A DNA stretch of 64,000 nt from Limnothrix sp. BL-A-16 (GCA_041937175.2 CP166615.1:3712001-3776000); one strand, 5' to 3'. Positions 26,390 through 44,727 are shown, counted from the first letter of the stretch. Notes: generated from the letters alone by a model not told the origin. A program made the numbers and translations.

Positions 26390-27934
26390 ATGGCTAGGCT
26401 CAAGTTCTCGGGTCGCCGTAAGGGGCATTCGCGCTCCCTTAACGAGGGCACCGATCGATCCATTGACCAGATCCTGAATGCCGGGCGATCGTTCTTTCAC
26501 GACGTATTCGGTCGCCGCACTTCCCTCGGTTGGTTAGCCTGTATTCCTCTGGCCGCCGTGATTGTGGCCACCTGGAACCTGGCTGCCCATGCCGCCGAAC
26601 CCATCAAACCGGAGGACGTTCAGGGCCTGCTGAACATGACCTGGGTTCTAGTGGGAGCCATCCTCGTGATCTTCATGAACGCGGGCTTCTGCATGTTGGA
26701 AACGGGCTTCTGTCGTCAGAAGAACGCCGTTAACGTTCTGACCAAGAACCTGATTGTATTTGCCCTGGCTACCTTGGCCTTCTGGGCTTTGGGCTATGGT
26801 TTCATGTTTGCCCAAGGCAATAACGTGATTGGCACGACGGGCTTCTTCCTGTCGGGAACGCCCGAAACCTACGGCATTGAAGCAACGGGGCTGCCGGTCT
26901 CGCTGCACTTCCTCTTCCAAGTTGCCTTTGCGGGCACTGCCGCCACGATCGTGTCCGGTGCGGTGGCTGAGCGGGTGAAGTTCGTGGACTTCTTGATCTT
27001 TAGCTTGCTGCTGGTTGGGGTGTCCTACGCCATCACGGGCCGTTGGATTTGGAGCGGCACGGGCGGTTGGCTGTTCAACATGGGCTTCCGCGACTTCGCT
27101 GGGTCAACGGCGGTACACTCCGTCGGTGGTTGGGCAGCGCTGATGGGTGCTTCGATTCTGGGGCCCCGGATGGGCAAATATGACAACGGCCAACCCCGCG
27201 CCATCCCTGGCCACAATATGAGCATTGCCACCCTGGGCTGCTTGATTCTGTGGGTTTGCTGGTTTGGGTTTAACGGCGCTTCCACCCTGGCCGTGAATGC
27301 GGCCGTGCCTTACATTGCCGTGACCACGAACTTGGCTGCAGCAGCGGGTGGCGTAACCGCCACGTTCACGTCCTGGTGGCTGTCGGGCAAGCCGGATCTG
27401 TCGATGGTGATCAACGGCATCCTGGCTGGCTTGGTGGGCATCACGGCGGGTTGCAACGTGGTTGACTACCCCGGTTCTGTGTTGATTGGTGGCATTGCCG
27501 GGATTCTGGTGGTGCTGTCGGTGGGCTTCTTTGACTCGGTGCTGAAGGTGGATGACCCGGTGGGTGCAACCTCGGTGCACTTGGTCTGCGGTGTTTGGGG
27601 CACGCTGGCGGTCGGTCTGTTCAGCATTGGTAAGGATGCAACGGGTGCGGATGCGGCTGGTTTGGGCCTGTTCTATGGTGGTGGTTTGACCCAGTTGGGC
27701 ATCCAGTTCTTGGGCGTTGCCATTGCTGGTGGGGTGACGGTGCTGCTGTCTACCATCTTCTGGTACGTGCTGAATGCGTTTGGTGGCATCCGTGTTTCGC
27801 CGGAGGAAGAGGCAATCGGTCTCGATATTGGCGAGCACGGCATGGAGGCCTACAGCGGCTTTGTGAAGGACAACACCTCGATCGGCCCCACGGGTACGGC
27901 GGCGATGGGTGTTTCGGATCAAACCGCATCCTAG
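26390..27934 (+). CDS. amt1: Ammonium transporter Amt1
   Basis: [51 protein letters not shown]. Confidence 0.95.
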
Positions 27935-29483: not shown

Positions 29484-30209
29484 ATGCACAAATTGATTAA
29501 AGGCTTGCGGCAGTTTCAGCAAGATTACTTCGCTTCCCATCAAAAGCTGTTTGAAGAGCTGGCCCATGGGCAAAAACCGCGTGTACTCTTCATCTCTTGT
29601 TCTGACTCCCGCGTTGACCCGGAACTGATTACCCAATCGGATCCTGGCGAAATTTTCGTGATCCGCAATGCCGGCAACATCGTTCCCCCCTATGGCGCGG
29701 CCAACGGCGGTGAAGGAGCCACGATCGAATATGCGATCGAAGCCTTGGGGGTGAGTGAAATTGTTGTTTGCGGCCATTCCCACTGCGGGGCCATGAAAGG
29801 CCTGCTCAAGATCAAAGAGCTGGAAGACAAAATGCCCCTGGTCAGCCGCTGGCTAGAACATGCGGAAGCAACACGCCAGGTGGTTTTGCAAAACTACAGC
29901 CCCTGTAGTGGTGAAGATTTGCTGGAAATTACGGTGGCCGAAAACGTGCTCACCCAAATTGACAACCTGCGCACCTACCCCTGTGTGCGAGCCAAGCTGA
30001 ACCAGGGTAGCTTGCGGCTCCATGCTTGGGTTTATGAAATCGAAACGGGTCGAATCTATGCCTACGACCCCCAAACCCAGGAATATGTGGAGCCGGAAAG
30101 GGCCTGGAACCGGCCCACGCCGGCCCTGACCTTACCTCAGCGCCAAGCCCAAGCCTGTGCCTGGTTGCCGCCGGAGCAGTCGGAGCGAATTTATCGCGGC
30201 GCACGCTAG
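29484..30209 (+). CDS. ccaA: Beta-carbonic anhydrase, CcaA/IcfA type
   Basis: CSDSR and GHSHCG Zn ligands; the C-terminal WLPPEQSERIYRG resembles the carboxysome-targeting tail of CcaA. Confidence 0.88.
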   Translation: MHKLIKGLRQFQQDYFASHQKLFEELAHGQKPRVLFISCSDSRVDPELITQSDPGEIFVIRNAGNIVPPYGAANGGEGATIEYAIEALGVSEIVVCGHSHCGAMKGLLKIKELEDKMPLVSRWLEHAEATRQVVLQNYSPCSGEDLLEITVAENVLTQIDNLRTYPCVRAKLNQGSLRLHAWVYEIETGRIYAYDPQTQEYVEPERAWNRPTPALTLPQRQAQACAWLPPEQSERIYRGAR

Positions 30210-30249
30210 GGCCCGCTGTCCAATCGCCTGAAACCCTGATTGCACAGTA

Positions 30250-30392
30250 AGGACTTACGCAGGATTTGCTAAGACCCTCACCCCTAGCCCCTCTCCCAAA
30301 AAGGGCGAGGGAAGAAGAATGCTGACTCCCCTTCTACCGTTCTGGGAGAAGGGGTTGGGGGATGAGGGCAATTGAGGTTTTGCGTAAGCCCT
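30250..30392. mobile_element. MITE with AGGACTTACGCA/TGCGTAAGCCCT ends and a nested REP-like inverted pair
   Basis: Terminal inverted repeat (TIR) matches 11/12. ACAGT(A) is duplicated on both flanks (30244, 30394). Internal CCCTCACCCCTAGCCCCTCTCCCA...TGGGAGAAGGGGTTGGGGGATGAGGG at 30275-30368. Confidence 0.8.
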
Positions 30393-30415
30393 AACAGTAA
30401 TGGGATCGCAAGGGA

Positions 30416-30435
30416 CAAGGGGCTTAAGCCCCTTG
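30416..30435. repeat. REP-like palindrome
   Basis: Perfect copy between the convergent ccaA and Amt-cyclase genes. Confidence 0.92.
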
Positions 30436-30487
30436 TTACGGCTGTTGGGGCTAGGAAACGATCGAACAGTTGGGAATCGATCGGCTG

Positions 30488-33400
30488 CTAATCCGTGGTG
30501 GGCAGGGCCGCATGAACCGATCGCTCCAAATAGATTTGAGCCACCCGATCGCCCGGAAATTGCCGCAAACATTCCTCAAAACAAACGGCCGCCGACTTGA
30601 ACTCTTGACGGTGATAGAGCCAAGTGCCTTCCTCAAAATGGGCCATGGTGGAAAGTTTTTGGTCGCGGATGGGTGACGGATCGCCATCGATCGCCTCAAA
30701 CACCGCCACGGGCCGGGATTTGCCTGTCACCTGTAATCGATCGATGAACCGCAGGTGATAGCGCGTTGGATCCTCCATCTGGGCGATCGTGTGGTGGGAA
30801 ATCAGGACGCTGCTTTGGTAGCGCTTAGTCAGGGTTTCCAACCGGGCCGCCAAGTTAACCGCGTCACTGATGGCAGTCCCATCCATCCGATTTTTGCCGC
30901 CCACCGTTCCCAATCGCATTTGGCCGGTGTTGATGCCAATGCCAATTTCGATCGGCACTTCACCCGCCTGTTGTCGTTCGCGGTTAAAGACTTCCAAATT
31001 TCGCCGCATTTCGATCGCGGAGGCCACCGCATCATCGGCCGATTCCGGAAACAGCGCCATCACCGCATCGCCAATGAATTTGTCAATGAAACCGCCATTT
31101 TGCTGAATTGCCGGTTCCATGTGGGCCAAATAGCGGTTAATGAACCGGAAACTCTCGGCCGGTAACAGGTTTTCCGTGATCGTGGTGAACGATCGAATGT
31201 CCGAAAACAAAACCGACATCTGCCGTTCCACTTGGTCGCCCAGCTCCACCTCCAAAATGCTCTGTTTGTTCAGCAGACGCAGGAACTCGTGGGGCACAAA
31301 CCGCCCATAGGCAATGTTGATGTGGGACAGTTGCAAATGGGTTTTCAGACGGGCCAGCAACTCCTTCTTGGAAACAGGTTTTGTGAGGTAGTCATTGGCT
31401 CCGGAGTCGAGACCTTGCACCAAGTCTTCCACCTGGTTTTTGGCCGTGAGCATCAAAATCGGCAGCTTGTGGGCGGGATAGCGCGATCGCAACTGCTGGG
31501 TCAGCTCATAGCCGGTCATTTTCGGCATCATCACATCCACCAACACCACATCGGGCTGAAACCCTTGCTCCAAAACGGCCAGAGCAGCGGGGCCGTTGTC
31601 GGCGGTCACGATTTCATACTCCTCCTGGGACAGGAAATTTTCCAGCACCTGAAGATTCACCGGCTCATCGTCCACCATCAGGATTTTGAACCGTTGATTG
31701 GGTTGGGCGCGGGCGGCGCTGGCCTTGGCCAAAAGCTGTTCCGTGTCCCGCTGGCTGAGGGCTTCCAGGAGTCGATCGCCCTCCACGGTGGCCGGAGCCA
31801 AGGTGATCGGTTCCGGCTCGATCGGGGCTTCGGGGGCTGGCTTGGAATTGGCCGTGGCGGGCTTGCGCAACATCATGGGCGATCGCCGGAAGCTGGGCAT
31901 TTCGTAGGTGAGGGCTGGCGCTTCCAGGGCCACCGGCAAGGTCAGCGTAAAGATGGATCCCACTTCGGGCCGGGACTCCACCCAGATTTTGCCCCCATGC
32001 AATTCCACCAGTTGCCGCACAATGGCCAACCCCAACCCCGTGCCGCCATATTCCCGAGCTGTGGAACGATCGGCCTGTTCAAAGGATTCAAAAATACGTT
32101 CGATCGCCGCTGCGGGAATGCCAATGCCCGTATCACTGACGGAAATGGCCAGCCACTTTTGGTCAGCCGTTTCCGAAGGCGACTCGAAAGATTGCTCCCG
32201 ATCAAGCTGCTCAGATTCTGCCGGATCCAGTCCGGGGCGATCGAACAGAGCACCCTGCCCGATCGCGCTTGAGGGCATCACCCCCCCCGTTAATTGATCC
32301 AATGGTTGATCCAATGGTTGACCCAATTGCTGATCCCCCAATTGAGGATCGACAGGATGCGACTGACTCAACAGTTCCGCATCCGGCTGCCAACGGCGAG
32401 CATGAACAATCACCTCGCCGCTTTGGGTGAACTTCAGCGCATTGCTAACCAGGTTGTGCAAAATCTGTTGCAGCCGGTTGAAATCCGCCAACACGGGCGG
32501 CAGGGCCAAATCAATAGCATTCACCAGCGCCAAGCCCTTACGTTCCGCTTGGTCGTAGTGCAGTTGCAACACCTGTTCCACCACCACGGCCAGGGTGCAA
32601 GGGCGCAGGGCCAGGTCGATCGTTTGGTGTTGCAGCTTGGAAAAGTCCAGCAGATCGTTCACCAAATTGGCCAACCGATGGCCGCTGGCGGCGATCGTGT
32701 CCAGGTTTGACCGTTCCCGATCGCTCAATCCTCCCCGATCGTCATCCAGCATCGCCTCCGCCAAGCCAATGATGCCATTGAGGGGCGTGCGCAGTTCATG
32801 GGACGTGTTTGCCAGCAAATCATCCTTCAGGCGGTTCAGGCGCTGGAGTTCCTGGTTGGCGGTTTCCAACTCCGCCGTCCGCTGCTGCACCTGGGCTTCC
32901 AGGCTCGCATTCAGGGACTCCAGCGCCTGGGACTTTTCCTGCAAGGCATCCATCACCTGGTTGTAGCGCTCGGCAATGTAGCCCACCTCCATGAACGGAT
33001 CCACCGGCACTCGCAAATGCAAATCTCCCTGGCGAGCGTGGCGATCCATCACCTCAAATAGGTCATAGACCTCCGTTTTCACCTGGTGCTCCGCCACGTT
33101 CAGTCCCATCTGTTCTTCCGCGAGGGAAACCCGCAGGGGATGCAGGCGATCGACCCAACGCAGCAACCCGTAGGACAGCCCAAAGGCCCAAAGGACACAA
33201 ACCCCAATGCCCAACAGTTGCACGGCAATTTGTTGGGGGCGCTCCAAACCACCCGGCAGTTGGCTCAAATCCCCAAATAGCCCCACACAAAGCGTGCCCC
33301 AGGCTCCGGCTCCCGCATGGATGGGCACGGCTCCCACCGCGTCATCGATTTGGCGGCGATCGAGCCACCATTCCACCGCCAACGCCACGGCGGCCCCCGT

Positions 33401-34309
33401 GAACCCCACCACCAGGGCGATCGGGGTCGTAATCACATTGCAGCAGGCCGTCACGGCCACCATGCCCGCCAGGGAACTGTTGATTAGGCATTCCACATCC
33501 GGCCGGTGGCGATAGTACCAACCCAGGGCCCCGCCGCCCAGCATCCCCGCCACGCCCCCAATCACCGTATGCACCAACACCGCTGGGACATGTTCATTAA
33601 GGGCCAGGGTGCTGCCGCCATTGAACCCCAACCAGCCCAGCCACAGCATCATGGCCCCAAGCATCGAAAAGGGCAAATTTGACCCGCTGATTTTGTGCTG
33701 CCGGGTGGCTTCGTCATAGCGCCCCCAGCGCGGCCCCACCACCAACAGCGTGGCCAGGGCAATCCAGCCCCCCACGCTATGCACCACTGTGGAACCCGCA
33801 AAGTCATAGAACCCGAGCGATCGCAACCAACCCACCCCCTGGCCGGCGGGACTTGCGCCCACAATTTCCATGCCCTTCCAAGCCCAATGGCCAAACAGGG
33901 GATAGATCAATCCCGAGCACAGGAAACAAACGATTAGATAAGACGAAAACCGCATTCGTTCCGCCACCGCACCGGAAATAATGGTGGTGGAAGTGCCACA
34001 AAACATTAATTGAAAAATTAAAAAAGCGGCCAGTTGAGGCTGCGATTCCACCGATAGGGCAAAGTAGTCATGGCCTATCCAACCCCACCAAGAGGGGCCA
34101 AACATCACCCCAAATCCAAACAACCAGTAGAGCAGTGCAGAAATGCCAAAATCTGATAGGTTTTTGGCCGCCACATTAATGCTGTTTTTCGATCGGGTCA
34201 TGCCCGATTCCAAACACATAAAACCAGGCTGCATCAGAAACACGAGTCCTGAGCACCCTAGCAACCAAGCCACATCGCGCATATTCAGCCAATTGAGATG
34301 AGCAGCCAC
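30488..34309 (-). CDS. Amt-HAMP-HisKA/HATPase-REC-adenylate cyclase fusion with TPR-like tail
   Basis: Amt motifs FLMQPGF, SGAVAER, DFAGSTVVH, WLGFNGGS, DDAVGAVPIH. HAMP GDLHLRVP...EVGYIAERYNQ. Kinase SHELRTPLNG, NALKFT, DTGIGI, GTGLGL. Receiver VDD..D..MP..K. Cyclase FSDIRSFT, KFIGD, TAISDAVNLAARLE. Confidence 0.93.
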   Translation of the reverse strand: MAAHLNWLNMRDVAWLLGCSGLVFLMQPGFMCLESGMTRSKNSINVAAKNLSDFGISALLYWLFGFGVMFGPSWWGWIGHDYFALSVESQPQLAAFLIFQLMFCGTSTTIISGAVAERMRFSSYLIVCFLCSGLIYPLFGHWAWKGMEIVGASPAGQGVGWLRSLGFYDFAGSTVVHSVGGWIALATLLVVGPRWGRYDEATRQHKISGSNLPFSMLGAMMLWLGWLGFNGGSTLALNEHVPAVLVHTVIGGVAGMLGGGALGWYYRHRPDVECLINSSLAGMVAVTACCNVITTPIALVVGFTGAAVALAVEWWLDRRQIDDAVGAVPIHAGAGAWGTLCVGLFGDLSQLPGGLERPQQIAVQLLGIGVCVLWAFGLSYGLLRWVDRLHPLRVSLAEEQMGLNVAEHQVKTEVYDLFEVMDRHARQGDLHLRVPVDPFMEVGYIAERYNQVMDALQEKSQALESLNASLEAQVQQRTAELETANQELQRLNRLKDDLLANTSHELRTPLNGIIGLAEAMLDDDRGGLSDRERSNLDTIAASGHRLANLVNDLLDFSKLQHQTIDLALRPCTLAVVVEQVLQLHYDQAERKGLALVNAIDLALPPVLADFNRLQQILHNLVSNALKFTQSGEVIVHARRWQPDAELLSQSHPVDPQLGDQQLGQPLDQPLDQLTGGVMPSSAIGQGALFDRPGLDPAESEQLDREQSFESPSETADQKWLAISVSDTGIGIPAAAIERIFESFEQADRSTAREYGGTGLGLAIVRQLVELHGGKIWVESRPEVGSIFTLTLPVALEAPALTYEMPSFRRSPMMLRKPATANSKPAPEAPIEPEPITLAPATVEGDRLLEALSQRDTEQLLAKASAARAQPNQRFKILMVDDEPVNLQVLENFLSQEEYEIVTADNGPAALAVLEQGFQPDVVLVDVMMPKMTGYELTQQLRSRYPAHKLPILMLTAKNQVEDLVQGLDSGANDYLTKPVSKKELLARLKTHLQLSHINIAYGRFVPHEFLRLLNKQSILEVELGDQVERQMSVLFSDIRSFTTITENLLPAESFRFINRYLAHMEPAIQQNGGFIDKFIGDAVMALFPESADDAVASAIEMRRNLEVFNRERQQAGEVPIEIGIGINTGQMRLGTVGGKNRMDGTAISDAVNLAARLETLTKRYQSSVLISHHTIAQMEDPTRYHLRFIDRLQVTGKSRPVAVFEAIDGDPSPIRDQKLSTMAHFEEGTWLYHRQEFKSAAVCFEECLRQFPGDRVAQIYLERSVHAALPTTD

Positions 34310-34679
34310 AGGATCCCTACTCCAACATGGGGAGCATTTACCATCCGTTGCATCTTTTCTTCAGTAATTTTTAGCAACTGCTTCAGTCTAATCAGAAGTC
34401 TCCAATGAGGGTCAAATTGGATTTGCCCGATCGACCCCAGCAGGTAACCCAAAGGCATGGATTCATCTCAGTCTGTATCAGGTTTTATTGCTTTTGCTGA
34501 TCTTCTCATCGCCCAGGGAACTACGGAATCAATTATTTATTTTAGGTATTAATTAACACCTGAAATTAAGTACTGCTGCGAGCCGCTTCAATCATCTGAT
34601 CCATGCTCTTTTGGGCTGGTCTTGAACCGGCTACCGTCGGGATTTGCCCATGGGTTTACAAAATTGCTGTTGACCTGGA

Positions 34680-34846
34680 ATGCAGTTGCTGGAATTGTTG
34701 GATGCGGGTTGGCCAAAACCGTTGCTGATTTTGGGTTTCCCGGTGGGATTTGTAGGGGCGGCAGAGTCCAAGGCGGGATTGGCGGCCGACTCCCGGGGCG
34801 TAACGTTTATCACGCTGCATGGACGATGGGGCGGCAGTGCGATCGC
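34680..34846 (+). pseudogene. cobH: Internal/C-terminal fragment of precorrin-8X methylmutase
   Basis: LLELLDAGWPKP.LILGFPVGFVGAAESK...GRWGGSAIA; the N-terminus is missing. Confidence 0.8.
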
Positions 34847-40471: not shown

Positions 40472-42175
40472 ATGGCTCGGATTAATCTGCTAGATACTCG
40501 AACTGCAACTTTCGGGGATTTAATGGGCAATGGGAAGATTTACCGAGTTCCAATTTTTCAGCGCGATTATTCTTGGACTGAAGAAAACTGGGAAGATCTT
40601 TGGCAAGACATTCTAGGGTTATATGACGATCCCTCAGCCAGCCACTACATGGGGGCGATCGTTCTGCAAACTTCCAGTACCTCTGACCAAGAATTCACCA
40701 TTATTGATGGTCAACAAAGAATTGCAACGATCAGTATCATTGTGATCGCTGTGATTGAAAAGATCCAAGTCCTAGTTAAACAAAATCAGCAAGCGATAGC
40801 TAATCACGAACGACAAGAAATTTTGAGACAAACTTATCTAGGTAATCGAGATCCTATTTCTCTTCACTATTCGAGTAAACTTTTTTTAAATGAAAATAAT
40901 AATGATTTTTACCAGAGTAATTTAATTAATTTAAGAGAGCCTTGGAATCTTCGCTCAGTCTCTCAATCCAACCAATTACTTTGGAAAGCTTTTCAGTATT
41001 TTTCAAGCCAATTGACACAGCTAAAGGGTATTGTCTATAGCGGTGAAAATTTGGCAGAATTTCTGACTAAAATCATTGTTCAAAGACTTTTGTTTATTCA
41101 AATCAACGTCCAAGATGAATTAAACGCCTACACTGTATTTGAGACTCTAAATGCTAGAGGCATAGAACTGAGTTCTACAGATTTACTCAAAAATTATTTA
41201 TTCTCCCTTTTTCGAGGCCCAGATGACTTGAATGAAGGCCAGCGGCGCTGGCGCGTGATTGCCAATACAGTGCAGATGGAAAATATTCCTGAGTTTCTGC
41301 GCTACTATCTCAGTCTCCAGCGACCCTGGGTTAAACGTGAACGCCTCTTTAAAGCAGTTCGAGAATCAGTTCAGGATTCTCAACAAGCCTTTGACCTACT
41401 AGATCAGCTTGAACGCTATAGCAGCCTATTTGTTGCTCTTGGCAATGCTCAGGATGATTTTTGGCGCGAAACGCCTGCGAATCGTACCTACATTCGAGAA
41501 TTAGAGCTGTTCCGGGTGAAGCAAGCTTACCCGATTCTTTTTGCGGCTCATAGTCAGTTTTCTGATGCGGACTTCACGCGATTATTGAAGCTGATTAGTG
41601 TGTTGTCATTTCGATATACGGTGGTTTGTGGGTTGAATCCCAGTGAACTAGAAAAGCTATATAACCAAGTGGCGATCGCGATTCAAAGCTCAGAAATTAC
41701 AACTCCTAAACAAGTCTTTGAACAATTGCGATCAGTTTATGTTTCGGATGAGAAATTTTCACAAGATTTTGAGCTGCTAACGGTTTCTACTCGGGGACAA
41801 CAGAAAAAGTTGGCTCGTTATATGCTGTGGAAACTCGAAAATGATGCAGCGAATCAAGAGATTATTGAAGAGAGTTTTTCGATCGAGCATATTTTGCCCG
41901 AATCACCGGATCAGGATTGGCAAGACAATTTCACCGATGCTCAAATGATTGACATGGTGTACCGACTGGGCAATTTAACCCCTTTGGAACCCAATCTCAA
42001 TCGCCAAATTGGCAATCAGCCTTATGTGGTTAAACGGGAAACTTATGCCACTAGTGGTTATCAATTGACGCAAGGGATTGTGGCTGAAGAATGGACTCCG
42101 AATGCGCTGGCTAATCGACAAAAACAACTGGCCAAGCGAGCGGTGCATATCTGGCGATCGGACTTTGCGACCTAG
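40472..42175 (+). CDS. DUF262-DUF1524 (GmrSD-like) nuclease
   Basis: FQRDYSW, IIDGQQR, FETLNARG; HNH-like SIEHILP...LGNLTPL...N. Confidence 0.88.
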   Translation: MARINLLDTRTATFGDLMGNGKIYRVPIFQRDYSWTEENWEDLWQDILGLYDDPSASHYMGAIVLQTSSTSDQEFTIIDGQQRIATISIIVIAVIEKIQVLVKQNQQAIANHERQEILRQTYLGNRDPISLHYSSKLFLNENNNDFYQSNLINLREPWNLRSVSQSNQLLWKAFQYFSSQLTQLKGIVYSGENLAEFLTKIIVQRLLFIQINVQDELNAYTVFETLNARGIELSSTDLLKNYLFSLFRGPDDLNEGQRRWRVIANTVQMENIPEFLRYYLSLQRPWVKRERLFKAVRESVQDSQQAFDLLDQLERYSSLFVALGNAQDDFWRETPANRTYIRELELFRVKQAYPILFAAHSQFSDADFTRLLKLISVLSFRYTVVCGLNPSELEKLYNQVAIAIQSSEITTPKQVFEQLRSVYVSDEKFSQDFELLTVSTRGQQKKLARYMLWKLENDAANQEIIEESFSIEHILPESPDQDWQDNFTDAQMIDMVYRLGNLTPLEPNLNRQIGNQPYVVKRETYATSGYQLTQGIVAEEWTPNALANRQKQLAKRAVHIWRSDFAT

Positions 42176-42198
42176 CATGGCCCATTGAGCAACAGGTT

Positions 42199-42873
42199 CT
42201 AGGACTCGATCGCCTGGAATTGTTCCATCAGCCAACGGATTGTGTCTGCGTCGTCGTTGCGATCGGTGCGTTCCAGAGCTTCCGCGACGATCGCCATTGA
42301 CAGCCCCGGCAAAACTTGGGATTCCTCGATCGCCCGGCTGCCCCGATCGGCGATCGCAAAGGCAATCACCTGGCGCTCATTGGCGTTGATCACCCAATAT
42401 TCCCGCACGCCCAACTGTTCATAGAGCAAGCGTTTGGGGCCGAGATCGTCGTTGAAGCTGCTGGCTCCCACTTCCACCACCAAGTCCGGCGGCCCAAACC
42501 GATCAAGGTCGATCGGCTCATTGCCCTTGGGTGGCCACTCAGGGCGATCGCCCACATAGACCGACAAATCGGGCTGGCATTCTTGAACGCCGGTTTTCCG
42601 CAAGCTCACATTCAAGTAGCGAACCACTCGCATCTGCCGTACCAGGGCATAGAACGCCACAATATCGGTGGGCGGCAGGTTCTGGCGAGCATGGTCATGG
42701 CCTAAAGGTGTCATCTCAAAGCGCATCCGGCCGTTGTAGTAGTAGCTGCGGCGATCGGGTGGGGCGGCAGGGTCGTTGGCGATCGCGAGGAATTCGTCCC
42801 AGGTGGCGGGCAACCATTGATCCAGCGGCGGATCTGTAATGGTGGCTGGTGGTGGCGTTGTGGCAAGGGTCAT
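42199..42873 (-). CDS. Uma2/DUF820 family endonuclease-fold protein
   Basis: QPDLSVY, PPDLVVEV, K..LYE.LGVREYWV. Confidence 0.9.
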   Translation of the reverse strand: MTLATTPPPATITDPPLDQWLPATWDEFLAIANDPAAPPDRRSYYYNGRMRFEMTPLGHDHARQNLPPTDIVAFYALVRQMRVVRYLNVSLRKTGVQECQPDLSVYVGDRPEWPPKGNEPIDLDRFGPPDLVVEVGASSFNDDLGPKRLLYEQLGVREYWVINANERQVIAFAIADRGSRAIEESQVLPGLSMAIVAEALERTDRNDDADTIRWLMEQFQAIES

Positions 42874-43063
42874 GGGAGCGTCCCCCAGCGATCGGGCGGT
42901 GACTGTTTCCAGTGTAGCGAGACGGTTTGATCGCAACCGGTCAACAGGGCTAATCAGCAGTTGATGACCATTGGTTGATGACCATTGATGGCTATTTGGC
43001 CCCAATCGGCTAAACTACGGTTAGTCGATCGGAAAACCGGCTTATTAAGCCATCAGATTAGCC

Positions 43064-43648
43064 ATGACCGCTGTTGCTTCCCTCCATCATCCTCTTCTGT
43101 CCAAAGGAACCCGCCTGTTTTTGCGGCGATCGCCCTTGCCCCTCGCGTCCGATCGCCTGTGGCAAATCGAATCCGGCGTGGTGCGCACCTTGGCTTGGTT
43201 AGATGACGAATCCTTGGTCACTTTGGGACTGTGGGGGCCCGGCGACTGGGTGGGCGCGCCCCTCTCCAACGTGGCTCACCATCACGCTGAGTGCCTGACG
43301 GATGTGAAGGTGCGGTCTGTGCCGATCGGCCAATGGGCCCCCAACCCTTTAGACCTGTTACGCCGCAGCCAACGCACCGAGGAACTGCTAGCCATCCGCA
43401 GCTATCGGCGCGTTGAAATGATGCTTCTGAAACTGTTGGATTGGCTGGGGCAACATTTCGGCCGCAACACCCAAAATGGTCGCGAGATTGACTTGCGACT
43501 GACCCATCAGGATTTTGCTGACCTCCTGGGAGCCACCCGAGTCACCATCACCCGCGCCTTTGGGCAGTTGGAACGCCAAGGATTAGTCACCCGATCGCTC
43601 CATCGAATTGTGTTATGCCCCGATCGAACATGGCACTACGAAATCTAG
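43064..43648 (+). CDS. Crp/Fnr-family regulator, CysR-like
   Basis: LWQIESGVVRTL...LGLWGPGD; HTH LTHQDFADLLGATRVTITR. Confidence 0.82.
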   Translation: MTAVASLHHPLLSKGTRLFLRRSPLPLASDRLWQIESGVVRTLAWLDDESLVTLGLWGPGDWVGAPLSNVAHHHAECLTDVKVRSVPIGQWAPNPLDLLRRSQRTEELLAIRSYRRVEMMLLKLLDWLGQHFGRNTQNGREIDLRLTHQDFADLLGATRVTITRAFGQLERQGLVTRSLHRIVLCPDRTWHYEI

Positions 43649-43788
43649 TTCCCCATCGATCGCGCAATAGCACCCAGAGGCAACCGGCAAATCATGATTG
43701 GTGGGAGACCTAGGGATTGATGACCAATTTCTGGCCATGATTCCCAGCCATGATTCATTGCAAGTTTTGGGGAAGTGAGTTGGAAAAA

Positions 43789-44727
43789 TTAAGCTGAATC
43801 TCGAAATCCCAGCCGATTACTGACTAAGTAATAGGGCCGCTGTTTTACTTCGTCATAGATTCGACCAATATATTCTCCTAGAATTCCCAAAAAAACCAAT
43901 TGAATACCGCCCATAAAAAAGGTTGTGGTCAAACCATAGGCCCAATCTAAAAAACTGTGACCCAACACAAATTTGAAATAGAGACCAATCAAACCCAAAG
44001 CAAAGGCAATCAGGGCGCAAAACAAACCCACATAGACCGTGATTCGCAGGGGAATGACGGAAAATGAAAAGATGCCATCAAAGGCTAATTTAAACAATTT
44101 GCTGATAGTAACCCGAGGTTCGCCACTGAAGCGGGGCCCCCGTTCTACAACAACTCCCGTTTGCCGAAACCCGGCATAGGCCCGCAGTCCGCTGAGATAG
44201 CGATTACGCTCGGGCATGGATCGCAGAGCCGCCGCCACTTTGCGATCCATGAGCGAGAAAATTCCAGCATCAAGGGGCAAGGTTAACCCGGATAGATAAT
44301 TTAAGAGGCGATAAAACAATCGAAAGGCAATGCGTTTGAGGATAAATTCTTTGCGTTTGCGACGAATGGCATAAACCACATCATAGCCCGCTTGCCACTG
44401 TTCCACGAAAGATAAAATGGCACTGGGCGAATCTTGTAAATCACCATCCATCAAAATCACCGCATCTCCTTGGGCGTGATCAATTCCGGCGGCGAGGGCG
44501 CATTGATGACCAAAATTTCGAGAGAGCTGCAAGAGGCGAACTTCAGAATCGCGATCGATCAAATCCTGCACAATCTTGGCGGACTGATCAACACTACCGT
44601 CATCTACAAAAATAATTTCGGCGGGATCTGCTAATTGATCAAGGGTGGCGCGGAGTTGTTGCCATAATTCCAAAATTGTTGCTGCTTCATTAAAAATTGG
44701 AATCACAATCGAGTAGCGAGGTTTCAC
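43789..44727 (-). CDS. GT2 polyisoprenyl-phosphate glycosyltransferase (GtrB/ArnC-like)
   Basis: VIPIFNE, VDDGS, SRNFGHQ, DGDLQD, 2 TM segments, GEYIGRIY.EVK.RP. Confidence 0.9.
   Translation of the reverse strand: MKPRYSIVIPIFNEAATILELWQQLRATLDQLADPAEIIFVDDGSVDQSAKIVQDLIDRDSEVRLLQLSRNFGHQCALAAGIDHAQGDAVILMDGDLQDSPSAILSFVEQWQAGYDVVYAIRRKRKEFILKRIAFRLFYRLLNYLSGLTLPLDAGIFSLMDRKVAAALRSMPERNRYLSGLRAYAGFRQTGVVVERGPRFSGEPRVTISKLFKLAFDGIFSFSVIPLRITVYVGLFCALIAFALGLIGLYFKFVLGHSFLDWAYGLTTTFFMGGIQLVFLGILGEYIGRIYDEVKQRPYYLVSNRLGFRDSA

Follow-up and report, generated by a model that had tools for sequence, protein, structure and literature searches.

Gene and domain architecture

The 64-kb stretch of Limnothrix sp. 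BL-A-16 analysed here (GCA_041937175.2, CP166615.1:3712001-3776000; henceforth the window, with positions counted from its first nucleotide) carries on its minus strand, at 30488-34309, a single open frame of 1273 codons that starts with GTG at 34309 and encodes an ammonium transporter-family (Amt) domain fused to a hybrid histidine kinase and a class III nucleotide cyclase (Table 1). On the combined evidence of sequence and analogy with characterised proteins, we propose that this fusion protein probably converts extracellular ammonium straight into a cyclic AMP (cAMP) signal. The genome is assembled into a 4.54-Mb and a 16-kb contig, the named relatives are cyanobacteria, and the G+C content of the fusion gene (0.57-0.60) is ordinary for the window.

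Pfam profiles recover, all above their curated cut-offs, Ammonium_transp at residues 14-410 (E 6.5e-113), HisKA at 495-561, HATPase_c with its best stretch at 717-794, Response_reg at 876-988 and Guanylate_cyc at 1029-1199, and the match to the NCBIfam model TIGR00836 (amt), at 396.8 bits, exceeds that model's cut-off of 343.3. The open frame and these domains bear out the one-polypeptide architecture that had been read from the window's sequence alone (hereafter the original prediction), and the motifs and residues then singled out all lie where they had been placed: DFAG (169), HWAW (141), WLGFNGGS (226) and LEAQVQQRTAEL (470), as well as H177, H331, H504, D925, D1037, K1077, D1081, T1145, N1152 and R1156. 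The full N, G1, F and G2 boxes ascribed to the kinase are likewise present, by Pfam and by an alignment of 51 rows (the fusion protein and 50 homologues with Amt and cyclase) that underlies all conservation counts below.

Two smaller elements hold in part. The segment called HAMP-like aligns without a break with Sd-Amt1 of Shewanella denitrificans up to residue 450, a stretch modelled as HAMP in that protein (PMC11152129), and is modelled by AlphaFold2, with moderate confidence, as a helix (413-427), a loop and a long helix (441-521), but the Pfam HAMP profile has no match in the fusion protein at E<=0.1. The tail described as TPR-like is four-helical in the model, but its TPR_2 score lies under the Pfam cut-off. 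The AlphaFold2 model of residues 1-1200 has a mean predicted local distance difference test (pLDDT) score of 65.5, a predicted template modelling score of 0.44 and a badly folded cyclase, and was used only for the secondary structure of residues 1-1000.

Table 1. Features of the fusion protein and its surroundings in window coordinates
Feature	Residues	Coordinates	Strand	Basis
Whole gene P0001: Amt(AmR)-HAMP-S-helix-HisKA-HATPase-REC-class IIIb cyclase-TPR-like tail	1273 aa	30488..34309	-	Open reading frame, Pfam, orthologues, bridging contigs
Amt module	14-410	33080..34270	-	Pfam, Sd-Amt1 alignment, 51-row conservation
HAMP-like segment, 52 residues in every aligned orthologue	411-462	32924..33079	-	Sd-Amt1 alignment, fixed length, model helices
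Signalling helix (S-helix), running on into the HisKA helix; orthologue median length 32	463-494	32828..32923	-	Model helix 441-521
HisKA/DHp, phospho-acceptor H504 in SHELRTP	495-561	32627..32827	-	Pfam, motif, conservation
HATPase (N623, D726-G730, G756/G758)	562-794	31928..32626	-	Pfam, conservation, model
Disordered, non-conserved kinase-receiver linker (disorder about 75 aa, 797-870)	795-872	31694..31927	-	Mean identity 0.09; pLDDT <50
Receiver (D880, D881, D925, T955, Y974, K977)	873-990	31340..31693	-	Pfam, conservation, model
Receiver-cyclase link, extended helix 981-1001 ending YGRFVP	991-1028	31226..31339	-	Model; median length 38; identity 0.64
Class III cyclase core (D1037, D1081, K1077, T1145, N1152, R1156)	1029-1205	30695..31225	-	Pfam, conservation, fold search
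Four-helix TPR-like tail and stop codon	1206-1273	30488..30694	-	Model helices 1212-1268; TPR_2 E 2.3e-4, 21.5 bits vs cut-off 27
Stand-alone amt1-type transporter P0122, without N1/N2 signature; context and internal control		26390..27934	+	Pfam, signature scan
NtcA-like box, weak, one mismatch, 250 nt upstream of the fusion gene		34546..34559	-	Match to consensus GTA-N8-TAC

The Amt module as a putative ammonium receptor

Among solved structures, Sd-Amt1 is the closest to the fusion protein (E 1.6e-115, over residues 14-460), followed by Ks-Amt5 of Candidatus Kuenenia stuttgartiensis (4.2e-83, over the Amt part) and Af-Amt1 (7.8e-54). Ks-Amt5, which the original prediction had cited as a known Amt-kinase sensor, retains its value as an Amt-kinase precedent with the N1/N2 ammonium pocket, but Sd-Amt1, which has a HAMP segment, is the nearer relative. 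With residue roles taken from the work on Sd-Amt1 (PMC11152129), all 17 mapped positions of its pore and N1/N2 pocket are identical in the fusion protein in a pairwise alignment. These comprise the Trp/Ser (W144/S233), Phe (F103/F229) and twin-His (H177/H331) elements of the pore, the receptor residues Q27, F30, E34, K49, N50, D53, F54, T109, S112 and Y124, and the exit-narrowing N277. The switch residues E34, K49 and Y124 and N277 correspond to Glu29, Lys44, Tyr119 and Asn269 of Sd-Amt1, and E34, K49, N50, D53, T109, Y124, H177 and H331 are invariant in all 51 rows.

The strict N1/N2 signature QX6EX15NX2D[F/T]X54-60TX2[S/T] matches the fusion protein at 27-112. Across 121 sequences, the fusion protein and its homologues, it is found in 45, and a relaxed form that accepts any residue after the Asp and a spacer of up to 62 is found in 117; it is absent from the product of the stand-alone amt1 gene (P0122), the sole other Amt of the genome. 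Furthermore, AlphaFold2 models the Amt region as a helical membrane module, and a cytoplasmic transducer is fused to its C-terminus, as defines the ammonium receptor (AmR) class. The earlier view of this module as a sensor is therefore supported by the N1/N2 signature of Sd-Amt1 together with its switch, which provide stronger evidence than the twin His because ordinary transporters carry the twin His too. Thus, by every sequence criterion the Amt module is of the AmR type and, read across from Sd-Amt1 and Ks-Amt5, it would bind rather than transport ammonium.

The fusion falls outside the assimilatory amt1/AmtB class, being neither stand-alone nor devoid of the N1/N2 ligands. The assimilatory uptake role would instead fall to amt1, which lies 2.5 kb from the fusion gene and is 38% identical, in the same division of labour as between Sd-Amt1 and Sd-Amt2.

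Kinase, receiver and cyclase

The kinase and receiver have all the features of a hybrid histidine kinase, namely the H box, the N, G1, F and G2 boxes, and the acidic pocket, Asp, Thr and Lys of the receiver. H504 is kept in 50/51 rows and N623 and the G boxes in 51/51; downstream, D881, D1081 and N1152 are kept in 51/51 rows and D880, D925, T955, K977, D1037, K1077, T1145 and R1156 in 50/51. A separate AlphaFold2 model of residues 871-1273 (pLDDT 91.7) has the last helix of the receiver (981-1001) leading through YGRFVP into the cyclase core and four tail helices. The YGRF motif at this junction resembles the cyclase transducer element, whose conserved start is -FGRY- (PMC5995499), as judged from sequence and model. 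Conservation in 50-51 of the 51 rows and the receiver helix that runs into this motif thus lend support to the internal relay proposed earlier, from H504 through the receiver to the cyclase.

An Asp-to-Thr polymorphism distinguishes class IIIb cyclases (PMC2613629), and by its Lys/Thr pair the present cyclase is, on sequence grounds, of the adenylate-specific class IIIb type. A fold search with the receiver-cyclase-tail model matched class III cyclases, the catalytic domain of CyaC among them, and no chain listed in that search covered the whole unit (best TM by query length 0.49).

Two disordered stretches are lineage-specific: an insert of about 76 residues (641-716; 32162-32389) that splits the HATPase domain, where the orthologue median is 4 residues, and the linker from kinase to receiver, which is 25-111 residues long across orthologues. 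Contigs of two other runs have a 12-nt in-frame deletion at 32294, inside the insert.

The exceptions to residue conservation come nearly all from one protein, P0112 of Spirulina sp. SIO3F2 (1112 aa), in which the Amt-HAMP part is kept and the phospho-His, the receiver Asp, Thr and Lys and the cyclase Asp, Lys and Arg are lost together. It is possibly a pseudo-enzyme or a decaying copy, and the joint loss of relay and cyclase residues is as expected of one functional chain.

Authenticity and distribution of the fusion

The original prediction would have fallen had the domains belonged to separate genes or to a misassembly. This was checked, and the fusion is upheld by three kinds of data, which lead us to reject misassembly or chance joining. 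The domains Amt, HisKA, HATPase and cyclase are carried by 50/120 homologues listed for residues 1-620, 49 of which also have the receiver, and the named ones among the 50 include Symploca, Spirulina, Lusitaniella and Leptolyngbya. In the other genomes of the same family (seven, including G001, considered below), the gene forms a single uninterrupted frame in G002, G003, G004 and G005 and is cut by a contig end in G006; it was not found in G007, which is 72% complete. Moreover, contigs of other runs bridge the junctions at 32079-34700 (X2), 31277-32131 (X14) and 31058-31942 (X2). What speaks for an artefact is a metagenome-assembled locus (L060) with the gene in two frames and a 1-nt deletion at 31684 in one low-depth contig; set against the above, we consider the chance of an artefact practically negligible. 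Receptor-cyclase genes split in two open frames occur at L060:5519-9203 and L019:5464-9110, through assembly error or as broken genes.

The locus is present in lake-water metagenomes from six studies. In an even sample of 250 cyanobacterial genomes an Amt-bearing match was found in 3 at E<=1e-255, an undercount, since this threshold missed even the window's own fusion gene.

Receptor and cassette as mobile modules

When 8000 candidates were scored, at least 5484 proved related to the receiver-cyclase-tail part at E<=1e-30. Among the best 120 matches to this cassette, 7 carry Amt and the rest mostly have dCache-HAMP, CHASE, sCache or PAS sensors; cassettes behind such sensors mostly show 52-64% identity across residues 870-1273. 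A tree of 51 cassettes requires 6 changes to account for its 21 Amt-bearing rows, and starred branches force at least 2 of these. We conclude from these sequence comparisons that the fusion is a join of two mobile modules, an AmR receptor and a common cyanobacterial kinase-receiver-cyclase cassette; since the latter is common and shuffled, the fusion protein is less singular than first implied.

The receptor is shuffled as well. A scan of species genomes for the receptor motif yielded at least 80 loci with flanks, 61 of them cyanobacterial and 15 from Thermodesulfobacteriota, and the 75 long loci were classified; the counts that follow hold among the matches listed. By Pfam (56/75 long products), the receptor clade is fused to PP2C, GGDEF-EAL, kinases with or without receivers, and AAA_35. 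Our own profiles identify Amt-kinase-receiver-cyclase in 10 of the 75, all cyanobacterial, PAS-linked cyclase fusions in 4, and an Amt-HAMP-kinase-receiver form without cyclase in 15. All 16 kinase-receiver-cyclase rows in a tree built from 69 Amt-HAMP modules belong to a single starred clade, whose 38 members include cyclase-less forms as well, a topology that fits one origin of the Amt-kinase-receiver-cyclase architecture followed by output swaps.

Several other architectures were observed in these sets. In L014, L043, P0042 and relatives, which form one clade on the tree, AAA_35 replaces the cyclase behind Amt-kinase-receiver; P0009 and relatives have Amt-kinase-receiver-PAS-kinase-receiver, that is, tandem hybrid kinases behind the receptor. 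P0079 (2037 aa) has Amt, dCache-HAMP and kinase-receiver-cyclase in one chain, hence two sensors on one cassette, with Asp in place of the class IIIb Thr1145. Tandem cassettes with different sensors occur at L055:5514-12450 (Symploca sp. SIO3C6), where the Amt-kinase-receiver-cyclase gene is immediately preceded by a CHASE-kinase-receiver-cyclase gene. L004, L062 and other Thermodesulfobacteriota loci fuse the same receptor clade to PAS-GGDEF-EAL, with two tandem copies in L004.

By sequence, three further wirings appear to link the receptor clade to a cyclase: PAS fusion, REC-cyclase genes downstream and a PP2C-linked cluster. The Okeania-type PAS fusion lies outside the starred clade of 38 and has another cyclase type (KIKTIGD/YDLWGD) that is 29% identical. 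An intact same-type cyclase gene follows within 2 kb on the same strand in 3 of the 61 long cyclase-less loci, again among the matches listed; a rough chance expectation is 0.17-0.3 (P 0.0008-0.004), and this recurrent pairing speaks for a link between ammonium and cAMP. In L045 the Amt-kinase, a small receiver and a REC-cyclase are separate genes in a row; in L020 (Jaaginema) Amt-kinase-REC is followed by a REC-kinase-like gene and then REC-PAS-cyclase; and in L006 Amt-PP2C is followed by two small genes and a PAS-cyclase, whereas the other 12/13 PP2C loci listed are cyclase-free in the flanking DNA examined. A single origin of all cyclase-bearing AmRs is rejected by the approximately unbiased (AU) test (p 1.3e-5), partly since cyclase-less forms nest among them, and the case for separate wirings is therefore made from the different cyclase type.

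Genomic context

No conserved operon is apparent. The amt1 gene neighbours the fusion gene in G000, G002 and G003 only (2/15 other carrier loci examined), and a carbonic anhydrase neighbour occurs among these 15 other loci in G002 only. The beta-class carbonic anhydrase gene of the window (29484-30209, plus strand) is convergent with the fusion gene, and its adjacency, limited to the genus, probably reflects no functional link.

The NtcA consensus is GTA-N8-TAC. The box upstream of the fusion gene has one mismatch here and is exact in 1/12 orthologue upstream regions (G002, of the same genus), so that NtcA control of the fusion gene finds no support beyond the genus, whereas amt1 has an exact box in 3/3 same-genus genomes. 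No terminator-like site was found in 30100-30600. Nor does the genome contain a nifH match that reaches the cut-off, which gives no link to nitrogen fixation.

Contigs of RNA runs cover 30/30 bins in X14 and 29/30 in X16, intergenic stretches included, which makes DNA carry-over possible in both, and 15/30 in X17, with little of the fusion gene. A short palindromic repeat (30405-30460) lies in the intergenic space that separates the carbonic anhydrase gene from the end of the fusion gene. It has several inverted repeats, about 110 blastn copies in the genome and high depth in metagenome contigs; one X16 contig has other sequence in place of 30245-30488. Farther away, at 40472-44727, the window has a restriction gene of the GmrSD type within a stretch of low G+C content (0.44), together with genes for a Uma2 endonuclease-like protein and a Crp-type HTH protein.

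Discussion

Given the residues and architecture described above, we propose that ammonium sets the phosphorylation from His504 to Asp925, which in turn sets cAMP output, and we put the probability of this reading at roughly 0.6. By analogy with Sd-Amt1 and Ks-Amt5, ammonium would pass the Trp/Ser, Phe and twin-His elements and bind in the N1/N2 pocket; the E34/K49/Y124 switch would then, as in the Sd-Amt1 model, shift the C-terminus of the Amt module and re-pair two of the three HAMP segments of the trimer. The predicted continuous helix 441-521 could carry this change to HisKA, whereupon H504 would autophosphorylate and its phosphate move to D925, both residues being in place. The flexible linker of about 75 residues lets the receiver reach the kinase, which makes phosphorylation, rather than a rigid lever, the likely link. 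As in CyaC of S. platensis, the phosphorylated receiver would act via helix 981-1001 and YGRF on the cyclase dimer and alter cAMP synthesis. The receptor itself would be non-transporting, with uptake left to the neighbouring amt1.

The register of a helix can invert the direction of a signal's effect. We nevertheless lean modestly towards ammonium raising cAMP, because activation is the effect in both known AmRs and in CyaC: at low concentration ammonium raised the phosphorylation of Ks-Amt5 (PMC5764959), it raised the cyclase activity of Sd-Amt1, which was locked in the ON state when prepared from rich medium (PMC11152129), and CyaC was activated by phosphorylation of its receiver (PMC3009899). 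That such a path would be independent of PII and NtcA, as originally suggested, is plausible.

Several observations weigh against this proposal. N277 is kept in only 43/51 rows; the transporter AtAMT1;1 shares the Q/N/D/S/Y of the pocket, albeit without the switch (PMC13745463); and some cluster-2 Amt proteins do transport (PMC11152129). The fusion gene is missing from the same-genus genome G001, which is 99% complete; only one Amt is present there, and the genes that would flank the fusion gene on either side lie next to each other. As the cassette sits behind many other sensors, its conservation is not ammonium-specific, and sister proteins have other outputs in place of the cyclase. The chance expectation for loci with a downstream cyclase ignores the clustering of signalling genes. 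In Dictyostelium ACR the kinase and receivers are not critical for cyclase control (PMC3009899), although ACR is without the His kept here. Finally, the genome encodes 13 class III cyclases, such that the whole-cell effect of the fusion may be small.

The alternatives differ in where they break the chain from ammonium to cAMP. The ammonium-controlled kinase might pass its phosphate mainly to another protein, either a response regulator or an Hpt protein, with the cyclase set by CO2/bicarbonate or other partners and weakly tied to D925. This is consistent with sister proteins that end at the receiver or bear other modules (15/75 long loci among the matches listed) and with the class IIIb Thr, as a response to inorganic carbon is stated for every prokaryotic class IIIb cyclase examined (PMC2613629). 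We consider such a branched output unlikely, given that no response-regulator or Hpt gene is present among the 20 neighbouring open reading frames scanned (window 18016-44727), that the receiver-cyclase link is fixed in length and conserved like the domains themselves, and that relay and cyclase residues decay jointly in P0112. A break at the other end is envisaged if the Amt module still conducts ammonium usefully, so that signalling reports flux, or if the main cue is another, such as pH or NH3. The transport pore is complete, the pocket residues recur in AtAMT1;1 (PMC13745463), and structure alone does not exclude transport by Sd-Amt1 (PMC11152129); however, the E34 switch, K49, Y124 and N277 match Sd-Amt1, whose currents were binding-dominated (PMC11152129), and amt1 is present as a gene of its own, preceded by an exact NtcA box, which together make this possibility distinctly improbable. 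Highly improbable, in our view, is a scaffold as in ACR, in which HisKA only dimerises the cyclase and ammonium, if it acts at all, does so via HAMP/HisKA pairing without phosphotransfer. ACR itself is a precedent (PMC3009899), and HAMP pairing alone has been proposed to activate the dimeric cyclase of Sd-Amt1 (PMC11152129), but the His, N and G boxes, Asp, Thr and Lys are kept here in 50-51/51 rows, whereas ACR lost the His, and a variable disordered linker of 25-111 residues is ill-suited to a mechanical lever.

A more speculative extension of the phosphorelay reading, tentative and on the whole doubtful when all its parts are taken jointly, is that one molecule senses both external nitrogen and inorganic carbon. 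Ammonium would gate the relay and CO2/bicarbonate would tune the class IIIb cyclase, so that cAMP would report the C/N ratio upstream of, and faster than, 2-oxoglutarate, PII and NtcA. Cyanobacteria would on this account have built the ammonium-cAMP link repeatedly, as a fusion, as a split kinase and REC-cyclase, as a PP2C cluster and as a PAS fusion, and the mismatch between trimer and dimer, together with the long linker, could pair cyclase domains between trimers and thereby cluster receptors.

With respect to characterised proteins, Sd-Amt1 (PDB 8qj3/8qj4/8qpf; PMC11152129) shares with the fusion the Amt-HAMP arrangement and all mapped residues, and its genome, like this one, has a separate assimilatory Amt; its HAMP feeds a GGDEF diguanylate cyclase directly (cyclic di-GMP; 644 aa), whereas that of the 1273-aa fusion leads to kinase, receiver and adenylate cyclase. 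Ks-Amt5 (PDB 6eu6; PMC5764959) likewise combines an N1/N2 Amt with a histidine kinase and ammonium-dependent phosphorylation; as described there, it is without HAMP, receiver and cyclase, whereas the fusion keeps acceptor and output enzyme in the same chain. The fusion cyclase matches the fold of CyaC from Arthrospira (Spirulina) platensis, also known from Anabaena PCC 7120 (1wc0; TM 0.80 by target length, 30% identity), and the fusion may work like it. It is not a CyaC orthologue: CyaC is a soluble protein in which a receiver and two GAF domains precede the kinase, and Pfam finds no such N-terminal domains in the fusion. The genome also has its own, distant CyaC-type gene (C1:4385041-4388637), which shares 34% identity in the receiver-cyclase region and sits on a very long branch. 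Dictyostelium ACR (PMC3009899) also unites a membrane domain, kinase region, receivers and a class III cyclase in one chain, but its membrane part is not Amt, its phospho-His is lacking and, according to the same source, its phosphorelay is not critical. Other versions of the kinase-receiver-class IIIb cyclase-TPR cassette have a dCache-HAMP, CHASE or PAS sensor instead of the Amt receptor; no characterised member of this cassette was found, though no literature search was aimed at it.

In agreement with the original prediction, full-text literature yielded no characterised protein that joins all these domains and no paper on the Amt-HAMP-kinase-receiver-cyclase architecture, which may nonetheless be drawn in figures or treated in subscription papers. 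The terms 'adenyl' and 'cyanobact' are absent from the text and readable supplements of PMC11152129, 'cyclase' from the available part of a 2023 review of prokaryotic Amts, and both 'ammonium' and 'amt' from the Arthrospira NIES-39 genome paper. The output chain behind this AmR thus appears unstudied, whereas its parts are already known. The surprise is accordingly limited: AmR fusions with diverse outputs were foreseen in print, the cassette is widespread, and few of the sampled genomes carry the gene.

Cyanobacteria are described as sensing nitrogen, in C/N control, through internal metabolites, 2-oxoglutarate above all, with cAMP serving as a carbon signal (PMC8042125), and nitrogen-dependent cAMP changes have been reported in Anabaena (PMC4284465). 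The present genome has 11 matches to cNMP-binding domains. The output domains of both characterised AmRs are invisible in their structures (PMC11152129), and the fusion bears on the coupling of a trimeric receptor to a dimeric output. With input, relay and enzyme in one chain and a cAMP read-out scorable in an E. coli cya mutant, it is a convenient test object and could find use as a genetically encoded reporter of ammonium. It is rare, coherent, recurrently wired to cAMP and easily testable, yet built from known parts; if our reading is true, it would join an outward-looking nitrogen input to the cAMP network.

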